Positions 15,120-32,379 of a stretch of DNA of 64,000 nt are shown here, piece by piece. The notes under the pieces are model-generated. The model made no database searches, was not told the origin of the DNA, and was given only the letters and a program-made list of their open reading frames with translations. Position 1 is the first letter of the stretch; each line of letters opens with the position of its first letter. This DNA is from an uncultured bacterium (GTDB lineage: Bacteria; Babelota; Babeliae; Babelales; Vermiphilaceae). The position numbers and the translations under genes are program-made. The stretch lies in assembly GCA_963738145.1 (NCBI GenBank), contig CAVTVH010000001.1, positions 569,011 through 633,010 of the forward strand, given 5' to 3'.

Positions 15120-15240
15120 AATCTTGAATTTTATACGTTGAGTTTGTTACGATTATTTTAGTGATATGTGCATGCACGTACTGCAGCCATCTTAATATTC
15201 TTAAGCCAATAAAAAGAAAAAATCCAAAAACCGTTTCTAC

Positions 15241-15320
15241 CCCTCGATACACCCTACTTCGCTTTCATGGGAATAACTACGAAGTACCGCTTAGCTACGA
15301 AGGGCACTCGGGGCGATAGG
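15241..15320 (+). repeat. dispersed intergenic repeat, family B
   Basis: CCCTCGATACACCCTACTTCGCTTTCATGGG...CTACGAAGGGCACTCGGGGCGATAGG. Related copies lie at 19945-19996, 25279-25490 (reverse), 46536-46589, 60131-60193 and 61247-61315. Confidence 0.7.
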
Positions 15321-15400: not shown

Positions 15401-17108
15401 ATGAAAGCCCGAGACGTTCAGGATAAAGAAATAAAAGAGCAACAACTTGATACTCCAGATCAACAGAGTTCATCCGAGGGTGATTCTACGTCGATGCCGA
15501 CAACAACACCTCCTATTGAAGCACCATTGCCAGATCCTAAGCCAACAACAGGCGCTCCTCGAGGGGAACGTAAAGTTGTGGTTAGAGCGACTGAGCCAAA
15601 AGTGGAATCAATGAAAGAAGCCAAACAGCCACAGCAACAACAGTACGCCCAAGAAAAGACAGCCTCCCATGAGCGTGACGAACGGCCAAGAACTGATGCA
15701 CGACCTAAAGAATATGGATCGCAACAACATCGTGATTATAGATCAGGGCAAGGTGGAGGATCTCATCAACGTTCTCATTCTCCCCATAACAATAATGGCA
15801 ATCAATACTATCAACAGTCTCAGCAACAAGAGCCCTATAAGCAACCAACGCTTGAGGAGCTTTCTTTGCTCGATTTGAATACGTATGCTCGTCGTTTTGG
15901 TATCGTTGGTGCAAGTTTGCTTTCAAAGCCCGACCTTATTGCGCGCATTCGTTATGTAGAAGCGCATCCTGATTTAGAAATGGAAGTTGAGGGTGTTCTC
16001 GAAAAATTGCCCGATGGCTTTGGATTTTTGCGGTCAGCAAAATTTGATTATGTATCTGGGCCTGATGACGTGTATGTTTCCCCATCACAAATCAGACGCT
16101 TTAACTTAAAAACGGGTGATACGGTTACTGGTGTTATTCGTAAACCAAAAGAAGGTGAAAAATATTTTGCCTTACTTAAGGTTTCCAAAATAAATTACGA
16201 AGATCCGGCGCTCAGTGCTGATCGGCCAATGTTTGATCGTTTAACTCCGCTTCATCCAAATAAAAAATTTAATTTAGAAGCAGATCCTACCATACTATCT
16301 ACGCGTATTATGGATATCTTTACCCCGATTGGTAAAGGTCAGCGTGGTCTTATTGTAGCGCCACCAAAAGTGGGTAAAACGGTATTACTCAAAGAAATAG
16401 GTAAAGCCATAATTGCTAACCATCCGGAAGTCTACTTAATAGTGTTGTGTGTTGATGAGCGACCTGAAGAAGTTGCGGACATGAAGCGTACCGTTAAAGG
16501 GGCATCGGCAGAAGTGATAAGTTCTACTTTTGATGAATCTGCTGAACGTCACGTGCAAGTTGCAGAAATTGTGTTAGAAAAAGCAAAACGTATGGTAGAA
16601 GCGGGCAAAGATGTTGTTATCTTACTTGATTCTATAACGCGTTTGGCCCGAGCTTACAATACAACGGCACCGGCCTCAGGCAAGGTGTTAACGGGTGGTA
16701 TTGATGCTAACGCATTGCAACGGCCAAAGCGATTCTTTGGTGCGGCACGTAACACTGAAGAAGGTGGTTCATTAACTATTATCGCTACGTGCTTTAATTG
16801 ATACTGGTTCACGTATGGATGAGGTTATTTACGAAGAATTTAAGGGTACGGGTAATATGGAAATGCATATGACACGTAAGCTTTCTAATCGTCGTGTATA
16901 TCCTGCCTTTGATCTTGTACAATCAGGAACTCGTCGCGATGAGCTCTTGCTCAATGAAGAAGAACTGAATAAGGTGTGGATATTGCAAAAGTTCTTATCA
17001 ACGATGAATACGACTGAGGGTATGGAATTCCTCATCGAACGCATGAAAAAGAGTAAGACTAATAAAGAGTTCGTCGATTCTATTAACAAGAAAACGGGTG
17101 CGTTGTAA
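15401..17108 (+). pseudogene. rho: transcription termination factor Rho, interrupted by a 1-nt frameshift near 16790, with a ~150-aa low-complexity N-terminal extension
   Basis: ORF 15401..16801 contains the Rho N-terminal and RNA-binding domain, Walker [16 protein letters not shown], and ends [15 protein letters not shown] 16815..17108 continues [35 protein letters not shown]. Dropping one base at ACG-T-GCT restores [15 protein letters not shown]. Confidence 0.9.
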
Positions 17109-17120
17109 AACAGTTGATTT

Positions 17121-18146
17121 CTAGAATATATCCAAAGTCAGATCAGAGAATAGCCCCTGTTGTGCCTTATAGCTTCCTACAAAGGCAATCATGCCAGCAT
17201 TGTCGGTGCAGTAGCGTGGTGATGGTGTGAAGAATTTTTTACCGTGCTCCTCGCATAATGCGCGAAGACGATTTTTGATATACGCATTACAAGCAACACC
17301 GCCGACAAAAGTGATTGCTTGTACATGGGGATAAAGCTCAAGAGCTTGTTCAATTTTTTGTTCAAAAATATCGGCTATACAGACTAAAAGTGAGCTAGCA
17401 ACCTGTTGCTTAAGCAGCTCATCATTCGCACGTAAAAAAGTTTTGGTGGCCATGTCGTAAGCATTTCTTTTTACCAAGTCGTAGAGCACTGCAGTTTTGA
17501 GGCCAGAAAAACTAAAATCGAGCGTTTTGTGTTTTGCTCGTGGGTAGGCAAAAAAATCTTCAAAGTTAACCTGCGCTGCCATTTTTTCTATAATGGGCCC
17601 ACCTGGATAGGGCAATCCCATGAGTTTGGCTATTTTATCAAATGCCTCGCCAGCAGCATCATCAACCGTGTGGCCTATCGTATCATAATCACCAAAACCA
17701 CGAATATAATACAAGGATGTGTGCCCTCCAGAAGCGGTAATACATAGATGCGGAAAAGGAACGTTATTTTCAATCGATGCAGAAAAAGCATGGCCTTCAA
17801 GATGGTTAATGCCAATAATTTTCTTATCCAGCGCCCATGCCATCCCTTTAGCGAAACAAAGACCAACGAGCAAAGAGCCGGGCAATCCTGGCGTGGATGT
17901 GATTGCAATAACATCAATATCATTGAGGGTGATCTGTGCGTTATCAAGCGCAAGCTGAATAATAGTATTAATTTTTTCAAGATGCGAACGTGACGCTATT
18001 TCTGGAACCACACCGCCATGTGCTTTATGCATGTCTATCTGGGAAAAAAGTACGTTTGAAAGCATACCGCGCTCGTGCTGATACACGGCAGCAGCTGTTT
18101 CATCGCACGATGTTTCTATACCAAGAACCTTAGGGTTAGTTTTCAT
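17121..18146 (-). CDS. tsaD: tRNA N6-adenosine threonylcarbamoyltransferase
   Basis: VLGIETSCDETAAAV, HLEGH, SGGHT and GVACN motifs of the Kae1/TsaD family. Confidence 0.9.
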   Translation of the reverse strand: MKTNPKVLGIETSCDETAAAVYQHERGMLSNVLFSQIDMHKAHGGVVPEIASRSHLEKINTIIQLALDNAQITLNDIDVIAITSTPGLPGSLLVGLCFAKGMAWALDKKIIGINHLEGHAFSASIENNVPFPHLCITASGGHTSLYYIRGFGDYDTIGHTVDDAAGEAFDKIAKLMGLPYPGGPIIEKMAAQVNFEDFFAYPRAKHKTLDFSFSGLKTAVLYDLVKRNAYDMATKTFLRANDELLKQQVASSLLVCIADIFEQKIEQALELYPHVQAITFVGGVACNAYIKNRLRALCEEHGKKFFTPSPRYCTDNAGMIAFVGSYKAQQGLFSDLTLDIF

Positions 18147-18895
18147 GTGGAGATAGCCAAAACTGTTTTTATAGAATGGTCAAAACGAACTTCTTGTTTT
18201 ACTTGGCTGTGGAGGGCGTTGTAATCAAGAGAAGAAAGAAGCATTTGTGCCGATGAGTCGTGGAGTCTTTTTTCTGATCCAGTTATAGCTAAGATATTTT
18301 TGTCGATAATTATAGTAGGAAGTTCAACACAATTACCGCCACGTATTTCTTCTATAAAAGCGGGATTGTAGCAGATGATAATGCATGTATCGGGTATTTT
18401 ATTATCATTAAATATCAACTTTTCCTCTCTCACTTGCCAGAAGAATTGCGGTGAAGAACTCTTTTTATGGTCATCGATTGATTCTTCGGGGATGACTTCT
18501 TTAAGCTGTAGGGTGTAAAACTTGTATTTTTTACGCGGATCTATTTTAAGGTGTTTGACTGTGGCGCCTTCTGTTTCGAATAAAATACCCTCGATAATGA
18601 GGATATTAAAATAGGTTTGTGCGCGATCATCGGTGATGCTGAATAAAATACGTTTCGTGTTGTTATCAGCGATACACTTAATTTTGTAGCCACTGCAGTA
18701 AATTGAAATGTCGGGTATTGTCGTAAGCGAGCGGGGAAATTGTATGGTCCCCATAAAAAGCATAGGATTGCGCGGTTTCAGATCATTTCCTAGGGCATTG
18801 TTGTAGAATGCGCATACCAGATATACCCAGATGAAATAATGGTTGATCATGAGACATCCCCAAGGTAGAAGGCTATACATTGTGTTAGTAACCAT
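18143..18895 (-). CDS. hypothetical protein (signal or anchor at N-terminus), overlaps tsaD start by 4 nt
   Basis: 250-aa ORF. The start may instead be MINHYF at 18847. No family recognised. Confidence 0.4.
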   Translation of the reverse strand: MVTNTMYSLLPWGCLMINHYFIWVYLVCAFYNNALGNDLKPRNPMLFMGTIQFPRSLTTIPDISIYCSGYKIKCIADNNTKRILFSITDDRAQTYFNILIIEGILFETEGATVKHLKIDPRKKYKFYTLQLKEVIPEESIDDHKKSSSPQFFWQVREEKLIFNDNKIPDTCIIICYNPAFIEEIRGGNCVELPTIIIDKNILAITGSEKRLHDSSAQMLLSSLDYNALHSQVKQEVRFDHSIKTVLAIST

Positions 18896-18984
18896 ATATT
18901 CTGAAATTCAAGAATATCTTTGTGTATGATACCCCAAATATAACTACGTTTCAAACGTTACTCCGTAGGTAAGGTCTTTAGAGT

Positions 18985-19473
18985 ATGATGCGACGAATTT
19001 CTCAGTGGCTTGCTTCATTAGTGGTTCATGAACGATCGAGTGCAAAATTGGCTTTTTCCTTTTGTATGGGTATTTATATAGCCTTTTCTCCCTTTGTTGG
19101 TTTTCATACGCTTATGACCTTTGTCATTGTCTGGTTATTGGGCCTCAATTTAGCGGTTACTTTTGCGGCGTCTTGCCTATTGCATAATCCTTGGACAACC
19201 ATTCCTATTTACGGTTTTGATTATATTTTTGGTGAATGGCTCCTCAAAACAGTTATGGGTCTTGATAGTTTAGCCATGAACCCATCATGGATGTTGTCGG
19301 TCAACGATACTCTATCTACCTATCTTGGCACGCCGCATATTGCCCTTTGGTCGTTTATGATAGGGGGCAATATATTAGGGATTGTATTTAGCTTTGGCCT
19401 TTATCCTATCATGAAGAAGCTCTTTATTAAGCTTGTTGAAAAAGTGCATGGCATTGCTAGCGTAGAGGGGTAG
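18985..19473 (+). CDS. small integral membrane protein (DUF2062-like)
   Basis: 162 aa. The pattern AFSFCMGIYIAFSPFVGFHT..NPWT..P plus three or four TM helices resembles the DUF2062 family as I recall it. Confidence 0.5.
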   Translation: MMRRISQWLASLVVHERSSAKLAFSFCMGIYIAFSPFVGFHTLMTFVIVWLLGLNLAVTFAASCLLHNPWTTIPIYGFDYIFGEWLLKTVMGLDSLAMNPSWMLSVNDTLSTYLGTPHIALWSFMIGGNILGIVFSFGLYPIMKKLFIKLVEKVHGIASVEG

Positions 19474-19476
19474 TTT

Positions 19477-19941
19477 ATGGGAATCAAAGTTATTGCCCAG
19501 AACAAAAAGGCTTTTTTTGAATATGAAATTTTAGACAAACTCGAGGCGGGCCTTGTGCTCACCGGCGATGAAGTTAAATCAATTCGGGCCGGGCAAGTTT
19601 CCCTCATAGGAGCATTTGCCGTTGTCACCAATGGCGAACTTTTTATGATCAACTGTACCATTGCTCCCTATAAACAGGCCTATACCAAGCGGGACGATCT
19701 TGCTACCAGAAGTCGCAAATTGCTCCTGGCAAAACGAGAAATTTCTAGAATTGTTGGTGATATCTCCCGTAAAGGGGTAACGATAGTGCCATTGAGTATC
19801 TATTTTAATGATCGGAATTTCATTAAAGTCGAGCTTGGTATATGTAAGTCGAAAAAAGCAGCAGGTAAAAAACAAGCAATTAAGGAGCGGGACATCGAAC
19901 GGCAAACACGTCGTGAAGTTAAGGATGTGTATAAGTATTAG
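19477..19941 (+). CDS. smpB: SsrA-binding protein SmpB
   Basis: AQNKKAFFEYEILDKLEAGLVLTGDEVKSIRAG..RSRKLLL.KREI and a basic C-terminal tail. Full-length SmpB pattern. Confidence 0.9.
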   Translation: MGIKVIAQNKKAFFEYEILDKLEAGLVLTGDEVKSIRAGQVSLIGAFAVVTNGELFMINCTIAPYKQAYTKRDDLATRSRKLLLAKREISRIVGDISRKGVTIVPLSIYFNDRNFIKVELGICKSKKAAGKKQAIKERDIERQTRREVKDVYKY

Positions 19942-19996
19942 ACCTGATCTTCGCTACTTACGTAGCTCCGTGGGAATTCCCTTTATTATTTTCGGG

Positions 19997-20027
19997 CCCC
20001 AATCGCAGCCTTTTGGCGAGATTGGGT
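19997..20027. repeat. hairpin repeat, family A (CCCAATCGCAG...GCGAGATTGGG)
   Basis: Imperfect palindrome between the smpB stop and the tmRNA copy 1 3' end. Related copies at 20532-20557 and 46590-46618. Confidence 0.7.
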
Positions 20028-20034
20028 GAAAGTT

Positions 20035-20501
20035 TGGAGGCGATGGGAGTCGAACCCATGTCCGTATCACGTCAAGAATCGAGCACTACACGCTTAGTTT
20101 TTGATGATACTGTGCATGACCTCAAAAACAGAGTAAATCATGCAAGCTTATTGGGTGATACACACAATCCCACGCAATAAATAATCCTTGGATAGTGGTC
20201 CTATCTTTTATTATACGAATGAGCTCAGCTGATAGACACGCCTTGCCCAAAAGAGTGTTTGCGTCTTACGCAACTCTAAAAAGTCTTTGTCTGCGTGCCG
20301 CTACTGCAGGAGCAAATGCTGCTGCTATGCTAGCCATTACAAAACCAAGTACTTCCATAAAGCCAAAGCGTTCGCCTTGGACACCTGCATCACTTTGAGT
20401 GTTTGCATTTATCTTTTTTAACCAATTGTTTAACGAGCACTTGATCAACGCTCGGCATGCTCTCAACGCCATCAATAACACGTCGAAACCAGTACGCCCC
20501 C
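20035..20501 (-). ncRNA. ssrA: tmRNA (SsrA), copy 1, ~467 nt, long tag reading frame
   Basis: On the minus strand: 5' GGGGGCGTACTGGTTTCGACGTG ... GGACATGGGTTCGACTCCCATCGCCTCCA 3'. The 7-bp acceptor stem has a G3:U70 pair and there is a T-arm. CCA is not encoded. Homologous along its length to copy 2. Confidence 0.85.
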
Positions 20502-20531
20502 GAATTTTTCAAAGAACCACCTAATTTTTAT

Positions 20532-20557
20532 CCCAATCGCAGTCTTTGCGAGATTGG
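20532..20557. repeat. hairpin repeat, family A
   Basis: CCCAATCGCAGTCTTTGCGAGATTGG, about 30 nt upstream of the tmRNA copy 1 5' end. Confidence 0.7.
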
Positions 20558-20710
20558 TATCAAAGGATATGTTTATGATAGCATAGCTACCTCAAATGTT
20601 AAGAATGATTATTTTTCCCACTCTGCTATATTAAAATCAGGTAAAAATTCAATATTTTTAAGTTGTTAGGAAAAGATTTTCAACCCCCCTTCCCACACAA
20701 AGGACCCTCC

Positions 20711-21250
20711 ATGACTTCAAAAAACCTCACTATTTTCCTCACCCTCCTCGCACTAACCCCAGCCACACTAGTGTCATTCGCCGTTATTAATCAAACCGAT
20801 ACGGCAAAAGAGTTGGAATTGACCGAGGCATATCGCCATACATCTAAAATGCCAGATGGAGGGACTTCGTCAAAGGTTGTGCCCCTTAACGATACAAATA
20901 AACCCCATGCGCTCACGGTAGCAGCTAAATCCATAGTTTATTTTAAACTGACACAAGCATGCCCGGTGATGCTGTGTGATGTTATAACAACAACAGTGAA
21001 AGATAATACAACAACAGAATCGCGGATGCAGACTTGTTATGAGCCTTATCCTTTGACTCGTACCGAAAAAGCTTCAAAGTTTACCGATAAGTGGGGTTTA
21101 GTTATATGCAAACCGGATGCTTACAATAACGATTATGCTAACTCTTTTGCAAGACGTACGGCTCTCATGCAAGGATATGGCATTAAAATAGCACATCCCC
21201 AACTCCTGAAAAAAACAACCGTAGATGCATTGCCAAAAGAACTTGCCTAG
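20711..21250 (+). CDS. hypothetical secreted protein
   Basis: Signal peptide MTSKNLTIFLTLLALTPATLVSFA. No family recognised. Confidence 0.4.
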   Translation: MTSKNLTIFLTLLALTPATLVSFAVINQTDTAKELELTEAYRHTSKMPDGGTSSKVVPLNDTNKPHALTVAAKSIVYFKLTQACPVMLCDVITTTVKDNTTTESRMQTCYEPYPLTRTEKASKFTDKWGLVICKPDAYNNDYANSFARRTALMQGYGIKIAHPQLLKKTTVDALPKELA

Positions 21251-21372
21251 CCCTATAAACTAATATGATCCAACAAAGCTGGGAAGATTCAAAACCTCCC
21301 CGGCTTCATTTTTTTAGTAATACGTTATACTAGTGCTCAATTAAGAAAATCGCATTACCCTAGGATTTTCAA

Positions 21373-23403
21373 ATGAAGCACTCCATTTATTTATCGCTTA
21401 TTCTTGTAACCATTCCTTTCACCATTGCCGCACACAAAGATTCCAACACATCGTTATTTCATAAAATAAAACATCATTGTGTTTCTATGCTACCGGAAGT
21501 GGAAAAAGATTGGCCAAATGAGGCTTTCTATGACTACGTAGAGCGGTGTATGAAGTATCAGCGTGATTTGCAGCCGATAGAAAAAACACGAGCAGTATTT
21601 AAAATATTTTCTCCTCATCACAAAAAGGCATGCGCTCAGGTGCTTGCTGACACAAAAACATGGCAAGATCTGTGTTTATTCGGGACAGAACAGGGGTTTG
21701 AGGGATCATTTTTACATAAAATTAATCGCACGATCAGTGAATTAGGCCGCATTCATATTGTGTGTATGATGGCACAACCATTAACTGATTGTAAAAAAAT
21801 AAAGAAACGCCAACGTATTATTAAAGCATTCGTTGAAGATGAGCAGTTATATGCATCGGTAAGCGCATTGCTGAAGGAATTTTCAACGCTCGAGAACTTC
21901 CTCTTTTCATTTTGGTTGCAAGACATGCTACGTCAGGCATCAAAAAAACATTATTTCAGTGTCCCCTATTTTAAGAAATTCAACGAGAACCTTAATAAAA
22001 GCGAAATAGCCCTTGATGTAAAAACCTATTTTGACCATGGTAAACGATGTATGTGGTTTATCAGTACAGCCGCGGCAGCAATCGTATTACCGATCTATGG
22101 GTATATGCAATACACAAGCGCGGACATTGGCCCAACATTTCAAGAGACGGCCGAGCGGCTAACTGGTTCTGGAGGCCCTGCAATAGTATGGCTTATGTCG
22201 TTGATTAAGAATAATAAACTTAAAGGGCTGGCATCTGCAGGAGCAGGTTGGGTGTGTGGTGTTGTGGCAAAAGAGGAGTTTGATTGGGCCTACGACAATA
22301 TTTTTTTAGAAACATGTTTGCAAGAAAAACTTATAGCAGTTTCACGAGCTCAGAAAATTATCAAGGAGCTAGCCGTTTGCGTCCATGAACATGAAGAACT
22401 TATGCAAGGGCTAGATTTTGCAGAACATCTTAAAGATTACGCCAAGGGGCACGGGACATCTGATGGAATGCGTAAGCTTACTAAACTTTTGAAAAGTACA
22501 ACATTTGCATCGCAGCCGTCACCATGTTCACGATTGGGAAGAGTGCTTGTTACGTATGATCTTATGCATGAAGTTAAATCAGAATGGACGGGAGCGCTTG
22601 CAGCATTAGGAGAGTTGGATGCTTATGTGGCTTTAGCTAGCTTGTATAAAGAGTATGAAAACAAAGAAAGACGATTCTGTTTTGTAGGTTTTGTGGAACA
22701 TGATAAACCAACTATAGTGATGCAACAATTTTGGAATCCGTGTGTTAATGCACAAAACGTAGTTGCCAATTCTATTACTGTCGGTGGTAATGAACGCCAA
22801 AATATTATTATTAGTGGGCCAAATGCGGGTGGAAAATCTACATTATTGCGTTCAATTGCACATAATCTTATTCTTGGCCAAACATTCGGTATAGCGGCAG
22901 CACAGGAGATGTCGATTACGCCATTTAGTTTTATCGCTACTTACTTAAATATTGCCGACGATATTCTTTCGGGGACCTCAATGTTTAAAGCTCAGGTTTT
23001 ACGAGCACAATGGCTCCTCGATAAAACAAGCACTTTATCTGAAAAAGATTTTTCGTTCATTGTAGTGGATGAGATTTTTAGTGGTACGGCTCCTCGTGAA
23101 GGGCAAGCTGCTTCGTATGCCTTTGCCAAATATATGGGTAGCATGCCAAATTGCATATCTATGATTGCGACACATTTTCCTCTTTTACTGCAATTGCAGG
23201 AGGAAACAACTTCATTTGCTAACTATAAAGTCTCGGTTTCTGTCGGCCCTGATGGGACTATTATATATCCTTTCACCATTCAAAAGGGTGCATCAGACCA
23301 AAATATAGCATTTGATATATTACGGGCTGAAGGTTTTGATCACGCTATTTTAGAAAGTGCATATGAAGTTTTACGTTCCCATCAACTCAATTTTACAGCG
23401 TAG
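21373..23403 (+). CDS. MutS-related protein: signal peptide and TM segments plus a C-terminal MutS domain V ATPase, with no mismatch-binding domain
   Basis: Walker A GPNAGGKSTLLRS, STF-like SGTSMFKAQ, Walker B FIVVDEIFSGTAPREG and ATHF. The N-terminal 450 aa lack MutS domain I and contain hydrophobic helices (CMWFISTAAAAIVLPIYGYM, LASAGAGWVCGVVA). Confidence 0.75.
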   Translation: MKHSIYLSLILVTIPFTIAAHKDSNTSLFHKIKHHCVSMLPEVEKDWPNEAFYDYVERCMKYQRDLQPIEKTRAVFKIFSPHHKKACAQVLADTKTWQDLCLFGTEQGFEGSFLHKINRTISELGRIHIVCMMAQPLTDCKKIKKRQRIIKAFVEDEQLYASVSALLKEFSTLENFLFSFWLQDMLRQASKKHYFSVPYFKKFNENLNKSEIALDVKTYFDHGKRCMWFISTAAAAIVLPIYGYMQYTSADIGPTFQETAERLTGSGGPAIVWLMSLIKNNKLKGLASAGAGWVCGVVAKEEFDWAYDNIFLETCLQEKLIAVSRAQKIIKELAVCVHEHEELMQGLDFAEHLKDYAKGHGTSDGMRKLTKLLKSTTFASQPSPCSRLGRVLVTYDLMHEVKSEWTGALAALGELDAYVALASLYKEYENKERRFCFVGFVEHDKPTIVMQQFWNPCVNAQNVVANSITVGGNERQNIIISGPNAGGKSTLLRSIAHNLILGQTFGIAAAQEMSITPFSFIATYLNIADDILSGTSMFKAQVLRAQWLLDKTSTLSEKDFSFIVVDEIFSGTAPREGQAASYAFAKYMGSMPNCISMIATHFPLLLQLQEETTSFANYKVSVSVGPDGTIIYPFTIQKGASDQNIAFDILRAEGFDHAILESAYEVLRSHQLNFTA

Positions 23404-24637
23404 AAACAGTAAAGAAGTTTGACCATTTTTTAAGCCGTTGTAACTGTATGTGGGCTTGTTGCATGCGTATATCCTTAAACTGATCGCTTGAGACCCACTG
23501 AGGAATGATTTTGTGGGCATAGTCCATAAAACAGTCAAAACCTATGCAATACTTTTGATTACCTTGGCTATCCGTTATTTTTTCAGGAAATGCGACGCCA
23601 ATGCCAAAAAGCCGAGGAGCTATAAGGCCATTTGCTTCGTTGTAAGAAACTATAGGAGTAGCTCCATTAATAGATGGAAGATCATTGCGTTCATAACCAA
23701 TCGCATAAATTACTTTAGTACACCTGGTGTTGGTAAGGCCGGCAGCAATATCTTGATCGGTTGGTGTGTAGATGCGAGTTAAGTTTGCAGGCGGATTAAT
23801 TTCAAGTACATTTTGCGCCCATTCAGCAGCAACGCCTTTTAATTCAGTTGTTTTGCTTAGTAAAGGGTTACTTTTTTCTGCTACAAATTTGAGGGGAGTA
23901 CGGTAGAAATTGTAAATATGGTCTACTGGTTTTTCTAATTCCGATAAAAATTTTAAGAGTAAAATTGCTGAATGCGAGCTACCTACAACAGCTACCCTAT
24001 CATTTGGTGTTACTAGCGTGGGCAGGATAAACCTATCCAGAGCACTATCAAGAGGAATTGTTTTATCTTTTTCATAGGGCAGCTCTTTTGGATATGATCC
24101 AGTTGCGAGTATAACATGGTGAGCGGAAAGCTCCTGCCCTCCTTTAGTGTTAACATGCCAGGTGTTGTTATCAAAATAGAGGGCGTCCATAGAATCTTGT
24201 ACCGCATGAATACGCGCTTTAAGGTAATTGGTTATCTGTTGTAGGGGCCTGACAATAACCCCTAATTCATAGCCTCGCTCATTTGGGTCTAAGGTTTTGA
24301 GGTAATCTAATTCGGCACAGGAACAGTTTTGAAATGTTGTACATGTGCTTACAAAGTCTATGAACTCTTGTACTCTGCTGTTAGCAAAAACACGTTGATA
24401 AAAGGCGCCCATACGGCCCACATTAAATTCAGGGTCAAGCCAAATAATACTTTCTTGGCGTACGCCAATATCTAAAAGGACACCGATAGTAAGAATCCCT
24501 GCAGGACCAGCCCCAACAATAAGCCAATCGGCGACATGTTGAGGTTGCGCGGGTGTGTTGTTACCCACAAGTTGGGGATTAGGCACCGCAATTAAAGAAA
24601 GTGAAAATATACAATAGGCAAATAAAGTGTATTTCAT
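23393..24637 (-). CDS. FAD/NAD(P)-binding oxidoreductase with signal peptide
   Basis: Two dinucleotide-binding motifs (WLIVGAGPAGI and VAVVGSSHSA). Start at MKYTLFAYCIFSLSLIA, preceded by AAAGGA. Confidence 0.6.
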   Translation of the reverse strand: MKYTLFAYCIFSLSLIAVPNPQLVGNNTPAQPQHVADWLIVGAGPAGILTIGVLLDIGVRQESIIWLDPEFNVGRMGAFYQRVFANSRVQEFIDFVSTCTTFQNCSCAELDYLKTLDPNERGYELGVIVRPLQQITNYLKARIHAVQDSMDALYFDNNTWHVNTKGGQELSAHHVILATGSYPKELPYEKDKTIPLDSALDRFILPTLVTPNDRVAVVGSSHSAILLLKFLSELEKPVDHIYNFYRTPLKFVAEKSNPLLSKTTELKGVAAEWAQNVLEINPPANLTRIYTPTDQDIAAGLTNTRCTKVIYAIGYERNDLPSINGATPIVSYNEANGLIAPRLFGIGVAFPEKITDSQGNQKYCIGFDCFMDYAHKIIPQWVSSDQFKDIRMQQAHIQLQRLKKWSNFFTVSTL

Positions 24638-24879
24638 GGGAATCCTTTGAAAAAAGTCTATTTTGGCTAACACTACTGATCCGCGCAGGCTTTTGTAAAG
24701 GATTTCGAGAGAAATTCTGGCATACCCCTGCGGGCCATACCATTTGAAATTATTGTTATCCTGAGTATTGTTAAATATATATGTTGAAATTGAAGGTTAA
24801 AGTACCATTCTTGAGCAAGAATATTGAGAGAGGGACTCTTTTTTGGGTATCCTTTGAGAGTTGATCATTGAAATATTAG

Positions 24880-25236
24880 GGGGGCGTCAAGGTCTCGACG
24901 TGGTAGAAATGCCATCAAGAGCATGCCGAGCGTTGTTCAAGTGCTCGTTAAACAATTGGACAAATACCTAATTGCAACTGTTAATTCAGCTGCCTTTACG
25001 GCGTAAGCCGTAAAAGACTTGTTAATGAGCCGTGTCTATCAGGTGAATTAACTCGTATAATACAAGATAGAACTTTCGGGTAAGATTTTTTGATTTTGTA
25101 TCCCGTAAAGTATCACTAAACCAACATACCTATCGAAGTCTGTCTTTGAGCTGATAGGTGTGTACATTCTAAGACTGAGCATGGAGCGCTTGATTGTTGA
25201 CCACTGCGGACATGGGTTCGATTCCCATCGCCTCCA
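24880..25236 (+). ncRNA. ssrA: tmRNA (SsrA), copy 2, ~357 nt, 10-codon tag
   Basis: 5' GGGGGCGTCAAGGTCTCGACGTGG ... GGACATGGGTTCGATTCCCATCGCCTCCA 3'. Acceptor stem with G3:U70. Tag frame GCA ACT GTT AAT TCA GCT GCC TTT ACG GCG TAA (24974-25006) encodes ATVNSAAFTA. Confidence 0.85.
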
Positions 25237-25278
25237 ATCTTTTACCCAATTTTGCCAGGGGCAAGAATTGGGACCCAA

Positions 25279-25490
25279 TTCGCCTGCGGGGGAAAGACTT
25301 TGAAGTGTGGCTGGGCGACATTGGCTGCGCCGCATTTGATATAAGATGACTTAGGCGAAGATTGCCCCACGTAGCTAAGAGATACCCCATAGATATTCCC
25401 CACGAAAGCGAAGTGTGGGCTGGCTGCAAATGTAAATTGACTATTTATTGATTCGCCTACGGGGGGAGAAACTTCGAGGGTTTGGCCACC
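25279..25490 (-). repeat. composite of family B repeats immediately 3' of tmRNA copy 2
   Basis: Direct ~40-nt repeats TTCGCCTGCGGGGGAAAGACTTTGAAGTGTGGCTGGGCGAC (25279) and TTCGCCTACGGGGGGAGAAACTTCGAGGGTTTGGCCACC (25452). The central part is the reverse complement of the 15241-15320 repeat. Confidence 0.6.
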
Positions 25491-25558
25491 ACTGCTCCTT
25501 ACCAAGAATTTAAGACTGATAGTTGAAATGTGAAGGTTATCTATTTTGGAGGTTATAT

Positions 25559-26089
25559 ATGGATTCTATAAGAAGACTTTTGATAATTACGGGCCACCTA
25601 TTCATTGCAGGTGTAATGCATGGTGCTGGTGCCGATATCCCGCTTGAGCGGATAGTTGGTGATACTGCCGGATCACTCACACCGCTGTTAGCATCATCCC
25701 CTACAGCTGCTGAAAAAGATCTGTGTTCTATTTGTCATGACGATCTTAAAGACAACCTATCTACGTTGCCTTGTAAGCATAGATTGCACACCGAATGCTA
25801 TGAGGGTTTAATAAATTCAAGGTTAGTAAGTGAAGCAGTTCTATGTCCATTGTGTCGGGCTGATGTGGGGATAAAAGGGCAAAATCAACCAGATGTTGCG
25901 CTACGGGTAGTTCCTGCAGCAGATAATCAAGTATTACAAGAACTTCAACGAGCGCGAGAGCGAGCATCGGCAAGAGGGCTCAGACATTGTATTGGTGGCT
26001 TGTGTTTGCTAGGAGCGGCTATAGCTATTGTTGTTTCCTTAAATTATCATTTTCAGTGGATACAGTTTGGGCCTACTACAGGACATTAA
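25559..26089 (+). CDS. RING-H2 finger protein with N-terminal signal peptide and C-terminal TM helix
   Basis: C-x2-C-x12-C-x-H-x2-H-x2-C-x15-C-x2-C (CSICHDD..LPCKHRLHTEC..CPLC) at 25724-25855. GGAGG RBS lies 7 nt before the ATG. C-terminal anchor IGGLCLLGAAIAIVVSL. Confidence 0.75.
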   Translation: MDSIRRLLIITGHLFIAGVMHGAGADIPLERIVGDTAGSLTPLLASSPTAAEKDLCSICHDDLKDNLSTLPCKHRLHTECYEGLINSRLVSEAVLCPLCRADVGIKGQNQPDVALRVVPAADNQVLQELQRARERASARGLRHCIGGLCLLGAAIAIVVSLNYHFQWIQFGPTTGH

Positions 26090-26104
26090 AGGAGATACAG
26101 TCAA

Positions 26105-26632
26105 ATGAACTATTTAAGGTTTTTTTTAACCCTACATTGTCTGTTGTTAATCACTACTTTTTATGCCAGTTCTCCATTATCAACTATTCAAGTATCATCG
26201 CCGTCATCGGAGCTTCTACTAACTCATGACGCCACTTCTGCAGATGAGTTTGCATCAGAAAGTTCTAAGCGAGCATGCGCCATCTGTTTAGAAGATCTTA
26301 CGAGTCCAAAAAAAGAATTGCCTTGTGCTCATGAATTTCATGCGGTTTGTTACCAAGAATTGAAAAAATCTAAGCCAGAAAGCGAACAGATAAAATGTCC
26401 CTTGTGTCGAGCAGGTACAGGTGAACAAGGAGAAAACAAAGAGGCTGCGCAAGAAATAGGGGTTGGACAACCACAACCGGCCTTCGACGTAATTGAAGCA
26501 GAGAGATTGAGACGTAGGACATTACTAAAATGGGTCTGCGCCGGGATTATTGTTGTTGGTTCTACAGTTGCATTCACCTTGCTAAATGCTCAGTATGGGT
26601 GGATACATTTTGATCCTCATGGTATTCCCTAA
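26105..26632 (+). CDS. RING-H2 finger protein, tandem paralogue
   Basis: Identical spacing of metal ligands (CAICLED..LPCAHEFHAVC..CPLC) at 26276-26407. Has a signal peptide, C-terminal TM WVCAGIIVVGSTVAFTLL and a shared tail motif Y-x-W-I-x-F. Confidence 0.75.
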   Translation: MNYLRFFLTLHCLLLITTFYASSPLSTIQVSSPSSELLLTHDATSADEFASESSKRACAICLEDLTSPKKELPCAHEFHAVCYQELKKSKPESEQIKCPLCRAGTGEQGENKEAAQEIGVGQPQPAFDVIEAERLRRRTLLKWVCAGIIVVGSTVAFTLLNAQYGWIHFDPHGIP

Positions 26633-26768
26633 AAATCTTACCCCCTTGAGGCCAAAGACTCTTATTTGAAACTTTTTGATTTTTCTATATATTCTAAATG
26701 TGCGCATTTTGGATGTGCTCTTTAAGTAAAGCAGACTTCTAACTAGGGTATATAGGGAGACCATTTTT

Positions 26769-27056
26769 ATGATACGTATACAATCTTTATTAAGCATAAG
26801 CCTTTTATTATTCGCTTCTTCTTTTTCCTACGCAGCCGAACAAGATCAGTTAAAAGGGGGTATAGAAATGCCCTCATCACCTCTAGGTGCTTCCTGCACA
26901 TCTATTAATATTAGTACCGTCCCTCTTTTGAATAATGAAACTCCTGTCATTAGTGGTGGATCAACTTGTTTAAAGGCCTGCGTTCTTACTACAATTTCTG
27001 TAGGTCTATTGTCGGCATTGGCAATTGGTGGCATGCATATTGCGCAGTCGATGTAA
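26769..27056 (+). CDS. hypothetical small exported protein with C-terminal TM helix
   Basis: 95-aa ORF with a signal peptide and the hydrophobic C-terminus CVLTTISVGLLSALAIGGM. Confidence 0.35.
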   Translation: MIRIQSLLSISLLLFASSFSYAAEQDQLKGGIEMPSSPLGASCTSINISTVPLLNNETPVISGGSTCLKACVLTTISVGLLSALAIGGMHIAQSM

Positions 27057-27174
27057 CTTATCTATGCGTTGACTAATCCTTAAAACGCACTAGGCTTAAA
27101 CATTGTCTAATCAGTCTTAAGATGCAATTCTAATGTTTAATTCTTTATGTGTTTTAATTAAAGGATTTTTTTGT

Positions 27175-27801
27175 ATGATCACAAAAAGCAAATTGTTTTT
27201 AACGGCTACTCTTGTAGGTTCAGTGGCCGGTCTTCAAGCCTCGTTTAAGCCTTTAACGCCAACTCCATCGGCTACAGCAACCCCTAAAGCTTCAGTATCT
27301 AGTAAAGTTTCGGCATCGAGTGATGATGTAAACATCTATTACATCGATACCGCTATGGCAATGCAAAATTGCGATCGCGGCAAAGAGCTTTCCCTGGAAT
27401 TAGACAAAAAACGCGAGCAGTTAAAGGATGCGGTGGGCAAACAGGCTAAGAAATTGACTGATGCAGACAAAGATTTTAAAACCAAGAACGCAACTATGAG
27501 TCCTGCAGCACGTAGTTCAGCTGCAGCAAGCATAGATAAAATGCAGCGTGAGTTAGAAGTGTTTGCAAAGAATAGCGAAGAAGAGTTCAACTTAGCTGTA
27601 CAGCAAGCAATGCAAGAAATGTCTCCAGTGATTGAAAAAATTATCACTAAAATAGCAAAAGATAAAAATGCTGACGTTGTGCATGATACGGCAACTGGTC
27701 GCACATGGCGTTTTTCTACTAAGCACTCCATGACAGATGATGTAATTGTAGCGATAAATCAAGAGTACGCTGCCAGTAGCAAGGCAAAAGTAACTGCGTA
27801 G
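27175..27801 (+). CDS. skp: periplasmic chaperone Skp (OmpH family)
   Basis: Signal peptide followed by a long coiled-coil, Lys/Glu/Gln-rich region typical of OmpH/Skp, ending IAKDKNADVV.D... Confidence 0.65.
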   Translation: MITKSKLFLTATLVGSVAGLQASFKPLTPTPSATATPKASVSSKVSASSDDVNIYYIDTAMAMQNCDRGKELSLELDKKREQLKDAVGKQAKKLTDADKDFKTKNATMSPAARSSAAASIDKMQRELEVFAKNSEEEFNLAVQQAMQEMSPVIEKIITKIAKDKNADVVHDTATGRTWRFSTKHSMTDDVIVAINQEYAASSKAKVTA

Positions 27802-27830
27802 TAACTTTCTTGGTATAAGAGTGATATAAA

Positions 27831-27857
27831 AGGCGGATCAAAAGATCCGCCTTTTTT
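27831..27857 (+). terminator. rho-independent terminator
   Basis: AGGCGGATC-AAAA-GATCCGCCT followed by TTTTT. It overlaps the pth upstream region. Confidence 0.7.
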
Positions 27858-27867
27858 GGGTATATAT

Positions 27868-28383
27868 ATGACTATAAAAGCAATTATAGGTTTGGGTAAC
27901 CCCGGCCCTAAATATTATAATAATCGCCATAACATTGGTTTTCGCGTGGTAGATGCCTTAGCGGATCGATTTGCTGGTTCTTGGCATCAAAAGGGGAGCA
28001 TGGAATTGGCAGAAATAACTTTACACGGTAACCAGCTACTCCTTATTAAGCCTCAAACATTTATGAATAGTTCCGGCAACGTGATCCCGTTCTTGCAGAA
28101 AAAAGGAGTTAAGCCAGAAGAAATTTTGGTGGTGCACGATGAACTCGAGCTGCCCTTTGGCGTCCTTAAATTAAAAATGGGGGGCAGCGCTAAGGGGCAC
28201 AATGGCCTTAAATCTATCATCGCTCACTGTGGCCCAGAATTTATGCGGCTTCGCTTTGGCATCGGCCGCCCCGAACAGCGGGAAATGGTGCCCGATTATG
28301 TTCTGCAAAACTTCTCTGAAAAATCAGATGAGATTGAGCGGCATATTAGCGAGGCAGTGGCTATGATTGAACGGGAAAAATAA
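27868..28383 (+). CDS. pth: peptidyl-tRNA hydrolase
   Basis: IIGLGNPGPKYYNNRHNIGF, HDELELPFG and GGSAKGHNGLKSI. Confidence 0.9.
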   Translation: MTIKAIIGLGNPGPKYYNNRHNIGFRVVDALADRFAGSWHQKGSMELAEITLHGNQLLLIKPQTFMNSSGNVIPFLQKKGVKPEEILVVHDELELPFGVLKLKMGGSAKGHNGLKSIIAHCGPEFMRLRFGIGRPEQREMVPDYVLQNFSEKSDEIERHISEAVAMIEREK

Positions 28384-28777
28384 ATCGGCTTGTTGAAGAA
28401 CTACTGCTCGAAGATAATGAGCTTGATGAAGATGATGGTGTGGTGTTTGGTGTATCTGTGAATCTTGCAAGAGAACCATGTGATGTTGTCATTGAGCCGT
28501 GTAATGGACTGTTTGTAGGGGTTGTTAGAGGAATTGCTGTAGGAGTTGCTTTAGGGGATCTTTTGGCTATTTCTCTAAGATTGCCATACATGACACGTGC
28601 TGTTTCTTGTCCGGTACGCGTCAGTACTCGGTGAGCAGAGTATACATACATCGGCGTTGGCGTGGCGAGGGGTGTGGTATGTCTGGATGTTTCTGGGGTG
28701 CTTGTTGAGGCTCCATACGCCCAAATATTGATTCCAGTAGATATCAAGAAAATAATAGCTCTATACTGTGTACTCAT
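28361..28777 (-). CDS. hypothetical secreted Ser/Thr/Pro-rich protein
   Basis: 138-aa ORF with a signal peptide and a low-complexity tail TPSSSSSSLSSSSSSSTS. Confidence 0.4.
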   Translation of the reverse strand: MSTQYRAIIFLISTGINIWAYGASTSTPETSRHTTPLATPTPMYVYSAHRVLTRTGQETARVMYGNLREIAKRSPKATPTAIPLTTPTNSPLHGSMTTSHGSLARFTDTPNTTPSSSSSSLSSSSSSSTSRFIFPVQS

Positions 28778-28866
28778 AAACGGCCTACTCTCTTTTTTTA
28801 AAAAACTTTAATTATATCTTGATTACTACCGTAGCATATTGCCAAAAAAAAATGCCAGCATTTGGA

Positions 28867-31481
28867 TTATAAAGGTTGTTCCGCAAGCCATTTTGTAAGA
28901 GCTGCTTCCAACTCAGGACCAAACACTCCGCCACCTTGTAATGTTGTAGCCGAGCCACCACCGCGGATGCCAAGACTATCTTTCAGCCATGTAGCAAACG
29001 AACGCATATCAATGCGCTTGCCTAATTCTGGCGCTAATAAGCAGAAAAAGAGTTGCTTGCCTTCAGTTGTGCTGCTGACAAAATAAAATCCTGGTTGTTT
29101 GGCGTTGAGTCGCGTGGCAATGTCGCGTAGCTCTTCATTGGAAAGATTCTCCTCCATAATAAATAGAAAATTGATGCCGTTAATTGGGGTACTACGTGAT
29201 TGCCATAGAGGAATTTTAGAATAGACTAATTGCTTTTTAACGGAGCGTAATTCTTCTTGCGTCTTTTTTAAAACATCTTGTTGTTTATGCACCGCTTCAA
29301 GCACATCTTCACGTTTTACTTTAAATTCTTGGCTGAGGTTTTTAACGGTATCAAAGCAATCCTGGAATAGCCCTATCGCCTTAGGCCCAGTCACGGCAAC
29401 GATGCGTTTATGGCCCGCAGCTAAGGAGCTAACATCTATGATTTTAAAAGCTCCAATAACACCGGTAGATGGCACATGTGTACCGCCGCATAACTCTGCA
29501 GAAAATCCTGGGATATCAACAAGCCGGACCTTTTCTGGATTATATTTATCGCCAAAAAATGCTAGAGCACCGCGGGTAACGGCTTCTTTCATCGACATAT
29601 ACGCAACGTTGAGTTGGATGTCTTCTCTAATCTTTTCGTTGACCAGATCTTCTATGCGTTTGATCGTTGCGGGAGCTAATGGGTCATGGCAGGTAAAATC
29701 AAAGCGTAAATAATCGGGGTGCACCAATGATCCTGACTGTTTTACTTGTTTGCCCAAGATTTCGATAAGTGCGGCTTGGAGCATGTGGGTGGCAGTGTGG
29801 TTCTTCATGGCATTGGTACGCCATACAGGATCAACCGTTGAAGTAACCGCCATGCCAATTTTAAGGTTAGTTGGCGCTACAATCTGTGGAGCAATTGCAT
29901 TGTTCATATACTGCACGCTAATGATCGGCGTTGTGTGATTGTCTATCGTTAAGGTTCCCTGATCAGGCACTTGGCCGCCGCCAACAATAAAAAAGGGGGA
30001 CTTTTGAGCGATAACAAAGCAGGATTGACCAGCAGTCACTGAGTCGACAACTTTTTGATTATGTACAAGAGCTAGTATAGTTGATGGCGTAGAAAGTTCG
30101 GTATATCCAGTGAATTCTGATACAAGCGCCGGATCTATGTCGACTTCAACTTCATGGGCGCCAGCTTTTTTGCCCGACTGCTCTTTTTGTTTGAGCATCT
30201 CTTGTTCAAAGCCCTTGGTATCCACCGTAAAGCCATGCTCACGTGCCATAATTTCAATCAGCTCGGAGGGGAACCCAAAAGTATCGTAGAGTTTGAATGC
30301 TTCTGTTCCGCTGACAACTTTATTTGTTTGATGTGCCGCAAAGTAGTTTTTTAACAGAGCATTACCGCGTACTAAGTTGGCGGAAAATTTATCGATCTCG
30401 CTTTTGAGGATTTCCAAAATGAGCGTAGCACTTGTTTTTAATTCTGGGTAAATGGCAGCAAAATCATCGACAACAACCGCTGATAGTTCAGGAAAAATAT
30501 TTTTATCAGTGAGCTTTTGAGTGAATAGGGCTGCGCGCCTGATGATTTTGCGCAGAACATAGCCGCGACCCTCATTTGAAGGAGCGCATCCATCAGCAAT
30601 GAGCATGGTTGATGAACGAATGTGGTCAGCTAATACATGGAAGGCTGCCTTAGTTGCAGCGTCTTGTTGGCTATAGGTTTTGCCTGTTAACTCTTCTATT
30701 TTACGGATAATGCCGGAAAAAAGGTCGGTTTCATAAACAGAATCTTTGTTTTGCAAGACTGGCACACAAACGTTCAAGGCCCATGCCAGTATCAACGCCC
30801 GTTTGACGCAAAGGTTTATCGGTGCCATCCGCTTGACGATCAAATTGCATAAATACGATATTCCAGAATTCTAAAAAGCGGTCACAATCACAGCCTGGAG
30901 CGCACTCAGCGGATCTGCAACCGAACGTGGTGCCGCGATCGATATACATTTCGGTACATGGGCCGCAAGGGCCAGTGTCGCCCATTTGCCAGAAGTTATC
31001 CTTGGCGCCAAGGCGATGGATACGTTCTTGGGGAATTGCCGATCATGGTGTGCCACAAGTTGTAGGATTCATCGTCTTGTGTGAATACAGAAACGTGAAT
31101 GTTGTCGGCTGCTATTTTGTAATCTTTAGTGATGAGTTCCCAGGCAAAGGTGATGGCCTCTTTTTTAAAGTAGTCGCCAAAGGAGAAGTTGCCCATCATT
31201 TCAAAAAAGGTGAGATGGCGTTTGGTGAATCCTACGTTGTCTAAATCGTTATGTTTGCCGCCGGCACGGACACATTTTTGAATAGAAACAGCGCGTTTGT
31301 AACTGCGCGTCTCTTTGCCAAAAAAAAGATCCTTGAACTGGTTCATGCCAGCATTGGCAAATAGCAGCGTAGGATCTTGTGCTGGTATAAGGGACGAACT
31401 GGCCACTTTTTCATGGCCATTGCGGATAAAGTAGTCGAAAAATTTTTTACGGACTTCTAGCGAATTCATATCTATTATCAC
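28867..31481 (-). pseudogene. alaS: alanine--tRNA ligase, split by two 1-nt frameshifts (near 31035 and 30760)
   Basis: Three collinear ORFs. 30996..31481 covers [22 protein letters not shown] and [16 protein letters not shown]. 30731..30985 covers [18 protein letters not shown] and FWNIVFMQF. 28867..30843 covers [13 protein letters not shown], the editing domain HTATHMLQ and the C-terminal domain. Confidence 0.9.
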
Positions 31482-31641
31482 CTTCGGTTAATAGTGTGTC
31501 CGAATAGTATACCGTAGCTGAAGGATGTGTAAAATTAGTGCTTTTTCTTTAATCTCGTAACCCCGGTGCAAGGGGGCTGTTTTGGGGTATACTAAAACAG
31601 ATGTAACCTATCACCTCTGTTTTAGTATAAGGAACGGCACC

Positions 31642-32379
31642 TTGAAAGTAACTATTGTCATACCTGCCCATAATGAAGAAAAACGATTAGCACGTACCTT
31701 GCGCCATTATATAGACTATTTTTCTTCACAACCATTTAGTACTGAGATTTTGGTAGTATTGAATGGTTGTAGCGATGGTACTTTGGCTCTTGTACAAGAA
31801 TTTCAACGGCGTTCATCCATGATTAACTTTCTCAACATAGCCGATTCAGGTAAAGGATTGGCCATTGCTCAAGGTTTTGCGCAGGCAGCTCTACAGAATA
31901 ATGATTATATAGGCTTTGTTGATGCAGATATGGCGACGGCGCCCCACTATTTTTGCGATCTTATAAAAAAAATTGGGCAGTTTGATGGTATTATTGCGAG
32001 TCGCTATATGAAGGGAGCTACGGTAGCACCGCCTCGGCCGTGGATTAAATATTGGGGAAGAAGGCTTGTCTACGACAATCTCGTCTATCTTCTTTTTTTT
32101 ATGAACTACAAAGATTTTCAATGTGGCGCGAAGCTCTTTACGCGAGAAACGATCGTTAAAATAGTTCCTCATTTAACGGTGAAGCAATGGGCCTTCGATG
32201 TAGAACTCCTCTATTTGGCAAAAAAGTTTGGTTTTAAGGTTAAGGAAATCCCTACCGTTTGGTGCGACCAAGACGACAGTAAATTAAAAATTATGCGTTC
32301 TGGAGTACGCATGCTTGGCTCAGTGGTTAAGTTACGCATACACCATTCACCTTTTGGGCGTTTTTTAAGTTCTAAGTAG
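31642..32379 (+). CDS. family 2 glycosyltransferase (polyprenyl-phosphate sugar transferase-like)
   Basis: VTIVIPAHNEEKRL, VLNGCSDGT and FVDADM. Start placed at TTG 31642 after AAGGAA. The longest ORF starts at 31582. Confidence 0.7.
   Translation: MKVTIVIPAHNEEKRLARTLRHYIDYFSSQPFSTEILVVLNGCSDGTLALVQEFQRRSSMINFLNIADSGKGLAIAQGFAQAALQNNDYIGFVDADMATAPHYFCDLIKKIGQFDGIIASRYMKGATVAPPRPWIKYWGRRLVYDNLVYLLFFMNYKDFQCGAKLFTRETIVKIVPHLTVKQWAFDVELLYLAKKFGFKVKEIPTVWCDQDDSKLKIMRSGVRMLGSVVKLRIHHSPFGRFLSSK

Follow-up and report, generated by a model that had tools for sequence, protein, structure and literature searches.

Two complete and divergent tmRNA genes, head to head beside a single smpB, in a Babeliales genome

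Introduction

Can a reduced bacterial genome, of about 1 Mb, carry two genuine genes for the transfer-messenger RNA (tmRNA; gene ssrA), and if so, from where did each one come? The question is raised by a 64-kb stretch of contig CAVTVH010000001.1—the window, by which we mean throughout the whole of those 64,000 nucleotides—from an organism of the Babeliales/Dependentiae (TM6), whose SmpB has its closest relatives in metagenome-assembled genomes of Candidatus Babeliales/Dependentiae. The tmRNA-SmpB pair is nearly universal and almost always single-copy; an earlier note on this DNA, made from the letters alone, had nevertheless described two complete, diverged ssrA genes in the window with their 5' ends facing each other. 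The analysis reported here upholds that description and leads us to a reading that we consider probable: the two genes encode genuine, intact one-piece tmRNAs sharing one SmpB, the first (copy 1) having been inherited and inverted, the second (copy 2) having been added.

Results

Two complete one-piece tmRNA genes

ARAGORN called exactly two tmRNA genes, and no tRNAs, in the window (Table 1), and both loci matched the Rfam tmRNA family RF00023 from end to end (model positions 1-374), with 125.6 bits for copy 1 (E-value 1e-48) and 137.8 bits for copy 2 (E-value 8e-54), which scores compare with a gathering score of 47 and with the 113-161 bits of single-copy relatives. No further Rfam family rose above threshold anywhere in the window. 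The covariance-model check proposed in the earlier note thus bore out two complete, diverged, one-piece genes; they lie head to head on the chromosome with about 4.4 kb between them, and copy 1 is, as had been described, convergent with smpB.

The hallmarks that had been read from the letters were all seen again. Both copies start with GGGGGCG...TCGACG, possess a 7-bp acceptor stem with the G3:U pair (alignment columns 3/492), carry the T-arm GGGTTCGA(C/T)TCCC, and end in CGCCTCCA (also CGCCUCCA) without an encoded CCA. Both have the G3:U and every pair of the acceptor and T stems, as do 22/22 Dependentiae sequences; an encoded CCA, absent here, is present in most relatives, though the relative at locus L082 lacks it as well. 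Both genes are colinear with the standard model, their T-loops are uninterrupted, the tRNA-like domain and pseudoknot 1 (PK1) are intact in each, and the leader motif of the clade, CTTTGAAA—i.e., (C/A)TTGAAA—lies a few bases 5' of G1 in both.

Upstream of the tag the two copies had been said to share an identical stretch. That stretch is indeed common to both, as the 39-nt GCATGCCGAGCGTTG(A/T)TCAAGTGCTCGTTAAACAATTGG, but contains one mismatch and corresponds to PK1, whose sequence is kept across many Dependentiae tmRNAs and is therefore uninformative on the relationship between the two copies. In the PK1 loop helix the copies differ as A-U versus U-A and as G-U versus G-C, pairing being kept in both instances. 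Gene conversion as the source of this stretch was considered and ruled out because the stretch is conserved phylum-wide.

Table 1. Positions, within the window, of the two tmRNA genes and of the features around them.
Feature	Position	Strand	Remarks
tmRNA copy 1	20035-20501	-	467 nt; resident ortholog, inverted; long-tag type; ARAGORN, Rfam
Copy 1 tag frame	20266-20406	-	46 codons from the resume codon GCA onward, closed by UAA in the helix-5 loop
tmRNA copy 2	24880-25236	+	357 nt; extra gene; short-tag type; ARAGORN, Rfam
Copy 2 tag frame	24974-25006	+	GCA, 10 codons (ATVNSAAFTA) plus UAA in the helix-5 hairpin
smpB	19477-19941	+	Single SmpB partner gene; Pfam PF01668, E 7.5e-51
Lineage-specific 179-aa open reading frame	20711-21250	+	Between the copies; hydrophobic N-terminus
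Divergent MutS-family ATPase	21373-23403	+	Pfam MutS_III + MutS_V
FAD/NAD-dependent oxidoreductase-like gene	23393-24637	-	Pfam Pyr_redox_2; syntenic in L080, L084, L085
Hairpin T (CCAATCGCAGCC..GGCGAGATTGG)	19999-20025		Just 3' of copy 1
Hairpin T'	20533-20557		Direct-repeat copy of T, 5' of copy 1
Trailer hairpin of copy 2 (CCAATTTTGCC..GGCAAGAATTGG)	25246-25271		Oriented to copy 2 as T is to copy 1

Tag reading frames

Both tag frames open, without a start codon, at a GCA that aligns with that of the relatives. The frame of copy 1 encodes the peptide ANTQSDAGVQGERFGFMEVLGFVMASIAAAFAPAVAARRQRLFRVA and closes at a UAA within the GUUGCGUAAGACGCAAC hairpin, while the UAA of copy 2 sits in the CGGCGUAAGCCG hairpin. 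The earlier note had found copy 1 to be some 110 nt longer than copy 2, which difference is confirmed but consists of an expanded tag open reading frame (ORF) and not of added pseudoknot material, the extra 110 nt lying wholly within that frame; the two alternative frames of the segment contain three stops each. The possibility that the insertion was a structured RNA module was rejected, given its ordinary folding energy (z = -0.86) and its single open frame.

The tag of copy 1 aligns in frame with that of L082 (ANT.S.AG..E.FGF...AVA...A*), especially in the N-terminal half, and differs from it by an insertion of 8-9 codons (ARRQRLFR) ahead of the stop. Its net charge is +2 and that of its last 10 residues +4, and its maximal 19-residue hydropathy reaches 2.11, whereas 12 other Dependentiae tags, that of copy 2 included, have a net charge of zero or below and a hydropathy of at most 1.22. 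The tag of copy 2 resembles that of L011, ATPNVATVPAFA.

The tag frame of copy 1 is the longest in our survey. Within its Babeliales clade the frames run to 41 codons in L084 (5150-5605), 36 in L082 (1605-2045), 35 in L081 (2201-2640), and 26 in L085 (2725-3145), as against the 46 in the window; L009 and L078 were also counted with the long-tag Babeliales loci. The known range of tag lengths is given in a review as 8-35 aa (PMC8012679), which range the frames of 36, 41, and 46 codons exceed, and the commonest length is 10 aa according to a 2025 paper on a tmRNA database (PMC11915505). ARAGORN cuts several of the long tags of the clade short, its tag for copy 1 (ARRQRLFRVA) being only the last 10 residues of the 46-codon frame, of which tendency annotation pipelines should be warned.

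Relatives and the ancestral layout

To the question of one copy or two, which the earlier note had proposed to put to related genomes, the relatives gave a uniform answer. Our survey took in some 35 smpB loci of the Dependentiae, each with flanks of at most 10 kb, plus closer relatives obtained through protein searches, and in none of those loci did ARAGORN, nhmmer, or Rfam find more than one tmRNA: each relative has a single tmRNA near smpB, which in the clade of the window is of the long-tag type. The upstream order tsaD-X-DUF2062-smpB is kept in all the relatives.

Downstream of smpB the arrangements vary. At L082/L083 (SmpB identity 89%) smpB(+) is followed after 40 nt by tmRNA(+). L085-87 (80%) have smpB, a 301-aa ORF, tmRNA(+), an 85-aa ORF, a MutS-like gene, Pyr_redox(-), a 194-aa ORF, and RING; L084 (78%) has smpB and, farther on, an AAA_14 gene, tmRNA(+), MutS-like, Pyr_redox(-), and RING; and in L081 (73%) smpB is followed at some remove by tmRNA(+), RING, and MutS-like. 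The L080 contig, which is without smpB, begins inside a tmRNA(-) and continues with three ORFs(-), MutS-like(+), Pyr_redox(-), and RING; that tmRNA, likewise on the minus strand upstream of the MutS-like gene, is 91% identical to copy 1 over its first 100 nt. The Pyr_redox-RING spacer of L080, L084, and L085-87 contains no tmRNA.

These gene orders, together with the empty spacer, point to an ancestral layout of smpB, tmRNA, MutS-like, Pyr_redox, and RING with a single ssrA. By that comparison copy 1 occupies the ancestral site in inverted orientation, having been moved by the inversion from the ancestral position 40 nt downstream of smpB, and copy 2 lies in a spacer that stands empty in those relatives. 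Between smpB, ssrA, and the MutS-like gene each relative has interleaved genes of its own, which are mutually nonhomologous, so that the interval is a hypervariable spot.

Three further searches may be recorded here. The inversion of a larger block was considered as well, and the variable ORFs that separate smpB, ssrA, and MutS-like in the different relatives showed no homology to one another. P0122, whose SmpB is 80% identical, was tried as the missing half of the L080 tmRNA and proved to be another genome, with no tmRNA in its 1.6 kb. A metagenome scan with the PK1 signature of both copies yielded one contig, L078, containing a single tmRNA similar to that of L009, and no close relative.

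Relationship between the two copies

Over 340 ungapped columns copy 1 is 83.8% identical to L082 and 66.2% identical to copy 2, the best matches of which are L085 and L011 at 73.5% each; copy 2 and L011 have in common eight unique states. The tree of the copies that had been proposed, built here by neighbor joining from 25 tmRNAs with 500 bootstraps, placed copy 1 and L082 together, with copy 2 outside, in 500/500 replicates, thus making copy 1 the sister of L082 and leaving copy 2 apart with low support. Since that grouping excludes copy 2, the latter is not a recent duplicate but split off before the organism of the window separated from that of L082. Copy 1, for its part, is the ortholog of the single ssrA that about 30 relatives have beside smpB.

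The view of the two genes as a duplicated pair consequently needs amending: two diverged genes there are, but they are an inverted resident ortholog and an extra gene of earlier divergence. The extra gene is clearly of the Dependentiae type, and may be either an old paralog, which origin would entail several losses, or a xenolog from another member of the Dependentiae, which would entail one gain; we slightly favor the xenolog. The traits that seemed to link the copies to each other are, from their distribution, traits of the clade: the TCAAGT loop of PK1 is found also in L081, L082, and L084, the CTTT.ACCCAAT trailer hairpin also in L085, and the absence of CCA and the PK1 sequence are shared as described above. 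Because the same traits occur in those relatives, they are no sign of a recent duplication or of gene conversion.

Structural constraint

From 22 Dependentiae tmRNAs we obtained with RNAalifold a consensus of 64 pairs (nested pairs only), of which 39 show covariation. Copy 1 keeps 60/64 of them and copy 2 keeps 57/64, the single-copy relatives ranging from 57 to 64. Between the copies 38 pairs are identical, six have changed on one side, and 11 exhibit compensatory double changes. Comparison of copy 1 with L082 gave differences in 12.7% of the paired columns versus 30.4% of the others, and only two pairs have been broken specifically in copy 1 since its split from L082. Copy 1 is, then, not decaying as an RNA, and both copies are probably functional, their expression being a prediction from sequence. 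Promoter-like matches near both copies were no more frequent than in shuffled sequence, and a terminator scan likewise remained at the shuffled expectation.

Assembly support

As an independent check we used short-read Logan contigs from run ERR10755946, of the same organism. The contig L079 coincides with positions 19987-24707 of the window at 100% identity and covers the whole of copy 1 with its long frame, plus the three genes between the copies; L001 corresponds to 16839-20016 with two mismatches and L077 to 25320-33491 with eight. The support across 19.9-25.6 kb that the earlier note had wished to see is therefore present, at the contig level, for copy 1 and the segment between the copies, but copy 2 itself is uncovered. 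Copy 2 is nevertheless flanked on either side by genes (MutS-like, Pyr_redox, RING, OmpH, pth) that stand in the order of the relatives L080, L084, and L085, which agreement on both flanks makes a chimeric join of two genomes unlikely; and L079 and L077 leave a gap between their ends, so that intervening sequence is present in the short-read graph as well. The dispersed hairpin described below coincides with the break from L001 to L079, and the other breaks fall on that hairpin or on REP-like repeats. Copy 2 is, in our estimation, very probably real. The spurious ORFs overlapping either tmRNA copy had no exact record on look-up.

Neighboring genes

For the 179-aa ORF between the copies no Pfam or NCBIfam match was found, and no homology to the genes at the same position in the relatives. 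The MutS-family ATPase scores far below the NCBIfam cut-offs for MutS1 and MutS2, has a hydrophobic N-terminus, and contains no detected Smr domain; a MutS-like gene stands beside ssrA also in L080, L081, L084, and L085. The MutS2 of Bacillus is a sensor of ribosome collisions, and by analogy the MutS-like gene and ssrA, with smpB, pth, and alaS nearby, could form a neighborhood of translation quality control.

On the 3' side of copy 2 follow two RING-finger proteins, an OmpH-like gene, pth, and alaS. The RING-finger proteins, encoded in tandem (25559-26089 and 26105-26632, both +), are eukaryote-like, of the E3-ligase type, and have C-terminal hydrophobic segments; their homologs are syntenic in the relatives. 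Proteins of this kind are typical candidates for host-targeting effectors of intracellular bacteria.

The alaS of the window (-) is split into three ORFs (28867-30843, 30731-30985, and 30996-31481), while in the short-read contig L077 (3548-5878) it is one ORF of 776 aa; the split is probably due to indel errors of the window assembly, or else to strain-level frameshifts, and is of relevance here because AlaRS charges tmRNA. The rho gene (15401-17108, +) is apparently split too, its parts being a 466-aa ORF, extended at the N-terminus by a long Q/P-rich stretch, and a 97-aa C-terminal ORF (16815-17108); a frameshift or an assembly error may account for this. Elsewhere in the window, a 132-nt unit is duplicated in tandem at positions 33462-33725, in perfect register and at 98% identity, and positions 42001-43000 form a local peak of GC content (0.49) and GC skew (0.28) with no Rfam match.

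Repeats and signs of mobile elements

The hairpins T and T' bracket the inverted gene of copy 1 (about 0.5 kb), and T' may be a trace left by the rearrangement in which that gene was turned around. The same hairpin follows copy 2 and also a gene at 46591-46617; the dispersed form measures 25-27 nt, reads CCCAATC..GATTGGG, often then CCC, and, being without a U-tract, is not a canonical intrinsic terminator. REP-like repeats (CCCTCGATACACCCTACTTCGCT / CGTAGCTAAG..GAAAGCGAAGT) occupy intergenic sites at 15232-15306, 25363-25414, 60128-60159, and about 46540-46580, one of which lies in the 320-nt spacer that follows copy 2.

Pfam and NCBIfam searches of the neighboring ORFs, both between and beside the copies, revealed no gene for an integrase or recombinase and none of phage type, and the GC content is uniform. 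A blastn search of 50,697 phage records gave no match. The 29-nt tmRNA 3' end, GGACATGGGTTCGAYTCCCATCGCCTCCA, occurs in 60 IMG/VR contigs (L089-L148), mostly within about 100 nt of the contig end, which location is consistent with prophage att sites in the tmRNA genes of other bacteria; the tmRNAs of those contigs are unrelated to the two described here.

Discussion

The reading that we favor as probable, two genuine tmRNAs served by one SmpB, may be set out as follows. Copy 1 would be the vertically inherited ssrA of the clade at its ancestral site by smpB, the gene having been inverted and its tag frame having grown to 46 codons, and copy 2 an extra ssrA with a 10-codon tag inserted into the Pyr_redox-RING intergenic spacer. 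Each copy would be transcribed from its own upstream spacer, of some 200-240 nt, shared with a divergent gene; both RNAs would be processed, receive their CCA posttranscriptionally from a CCA-adding enzyme, be charged with alanine by AlaRS through the G3:U, and be delivered with SmpB to stalled ribosomes for trans-translation, whereupon the stalled chains would obtain a tail of either 11 or 47 residues, consisting of the charged alanine plus the encoded tag.

Several observations weigh against this proposal. Copy 2 stands at the low end of pair retention, with 57/64 pairs (56/64 on a second alignment), and its placement in the tree is weak, bootstraps having put it with L011 in 32%, with L085 in 22%, and inside the clade in 16%. 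The outlying tag of copy 1 could reflect relaxed selection rather than function, and the ...AFA ending that is commonest in the phylum is absent from both tags. Finally, three indels in 8 kb between the window and L077 mean that the assembly is not error-free, and the stretch of 612 nt around copy 2 (24708-25319) was in no independent contig retrieved.

Of the alternatives, the one that survives best—though we judge it unlikely—is a gene replacement under way, in which a single copy, most likely copy 2, would be functional, with copy 1 silent or bound to become a pseudogene, the reverse assignment being possible too. The tag of copy 1, a clear outlier in charge and hydropathy and with its ARRQRLFR insertion relative to L082, would fit such a course, as would the removal of that copy by inversion from its place behind smpB and the shuffled-sequence frequency of promoter-like matches near both genes. 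A gene released from selection would nevertheless sit poorly with the 60/64 pairs that copy 1 retains, with only two specific breaks since the split from L082, with stems that change 2.4 times more slowly than the other columns, and with a 46-codon frame that is still open where the other frames have three stops each; moreover, both copies have kept the tRNA-like domain and PK1 intact.

A more specific elaboration of the two-gene proposal, and one that we think improbable, is that the pair has been subfunctionalized toward two fates, copy 2 appending a short degron and copy 1 a tail-anchor-like tail of 46 residues that would direct the stalled product to the membrane. The idea comes from the tag of copy 1, in which a hydrophobic segment resembling a transmembrane helix (the one with the 19-residue hydropathy of 2.11) is followed by the basic cluster RRQRLFRVA. 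Were it true, such a membrane route, leading perhaps to FtsH or into sequestration instead of to the cytosolic proteases, would constitute a new use of trans-translation.

Very unlikely, in turn, is a recent inverted duplication in this genome, followed by fast divergence and by the deletion of most of the tag frame of copy 2. What the copies have in common, namely the missing CCA, the TCAAGT loop, the GTATAATA.AAGATAG motif, and a homologous 3' trailer hairpin, would lead one to such an origin; yet the first, second, and last of those traits recur in L082, in L081, L082, and L084, and in L085, respectively, copy 1 groups with L082 in every bootstrap at 83.8% versus 66.2% identity, and it is with L011 that copy 2 has its eight unique states in common, the tags of the two being similar as well.

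We attach equally little probability to an assembly artifact, whether through the collapse of strains or species or through a chimeric join at 24.7-25.3 kb that brought in a foreign tmRNA fragment. The Logan contigs break at 24707 and 25320, so that copy 2 and its flanks are missing from the independent contigs retrieved, and the window does carry indels relative to the short-read contigs; against these stand the gene order of the flanks, which is that of the relatives, the uniform GC content, the lack of overlap between L079 and L077, and the location of the other breaks on repeats.

Least credible of all is a by-product of mobile elements, be it an island or prophage in ssrA or an element with a tmRNA of its own. 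In its favor are the classic role of tmRNA 3' ends as sites of integration, the hypervariability of the smpB-ssrA-MutS-like interval, and the recurrence of the 29-nt 3' end at the ends of 60 viral contigs. Yet there is no integrase, recombinase, or phage gene by the copies, both of these are full length and mutually inverted, none of the phage records searched resembles them, and the tmRNAs of the viral contigs are unrelated.

What makes the locus worth pursuing is that natural genomes with two ssrA genes are rare test cases for the evolution of the tag sequence and of tmRNA dosage, and that here a reduced genome of about 1 Mb, in a phylum of the obligate intracellular type, keeps two constrained tmRNAs with very different tags. 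If both are active, they would offer a system for asking whether two rescue RNAs with a common SmpB can divide tag identity between them; if, instead, one of the two is decaying, the replacement of an essential RNA gene would have been caught in progress.

Comparison with known systems

Wherever sequence can be brought to bear, both copies agree with the standard one-piece tmRNA of RF00023: alike are the tRNA-like domain, the G3:U, the T-arm, PK1, the GCA, the stop in helix 5, and the pseudoknot region downstream, together with a smpB that is encoded adjoining them. What differs here is the presence of two genes, the want of an encoded CCA, and, in copy 1, a tag of 46 codons as against 8-35 aa (PMC8012679) and of a hydrophobic/basic rather than a neutral/acidic character. 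Neither copy is of the permuted or two-piece form or interrupted by a group I intron, for both are colinear with the model, the T-loops are whole, and the insertion of copy 1 lies in the tag frame.

The tmRNA fragments left by island integration resemble this locus in that a repeated tmRNA sequence lies near ssrA in a hypervariable neighborhood. Such fragments, however, are partial direct repeats of the 3' end that lie next to an integrase, whereas the two sequences here are both full length, mutually inverted, and 66% identical, and no integrase lies nearby; the statement in the earlier note that this was not the usual short 3' repeat of an island therefore holds. Phage-borne tmRNAs, as known from the Bxz1 group of mycobacteriophages and from Bacillus phage G, demonstrate that a foreign extra tmRNA can coexist with the gene of the host; the present locus differs in having no phage context, no phage-type domains, no similarity to phage records, flanks syntenic with the chromosomes of the relatives, and a copy 2 of the Dependentiae type.

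The closest parallel is provided by genomes with several ssrA genes. That bacterial genomes normally carry a single ssrA, as had been pointed out, is true, but second or third alleles are already documented (PMC4131195). Those genomes and this one have in common more than one full-length ssrA each, and the present case differs in that both genes lie on the chromosome, facing each other head to head across 4.4 kb, in a reduced genome of about 1 Mb, and with very different tags; a full-text literature search found no paper describing a Dependentiae genome with two ssrA genes. The case is thus rare but has precedent, and what is less usual in it is the combination of an inverted resident gene, bearing the longest tag of the survey, with an extra gene that is either old or foreign.

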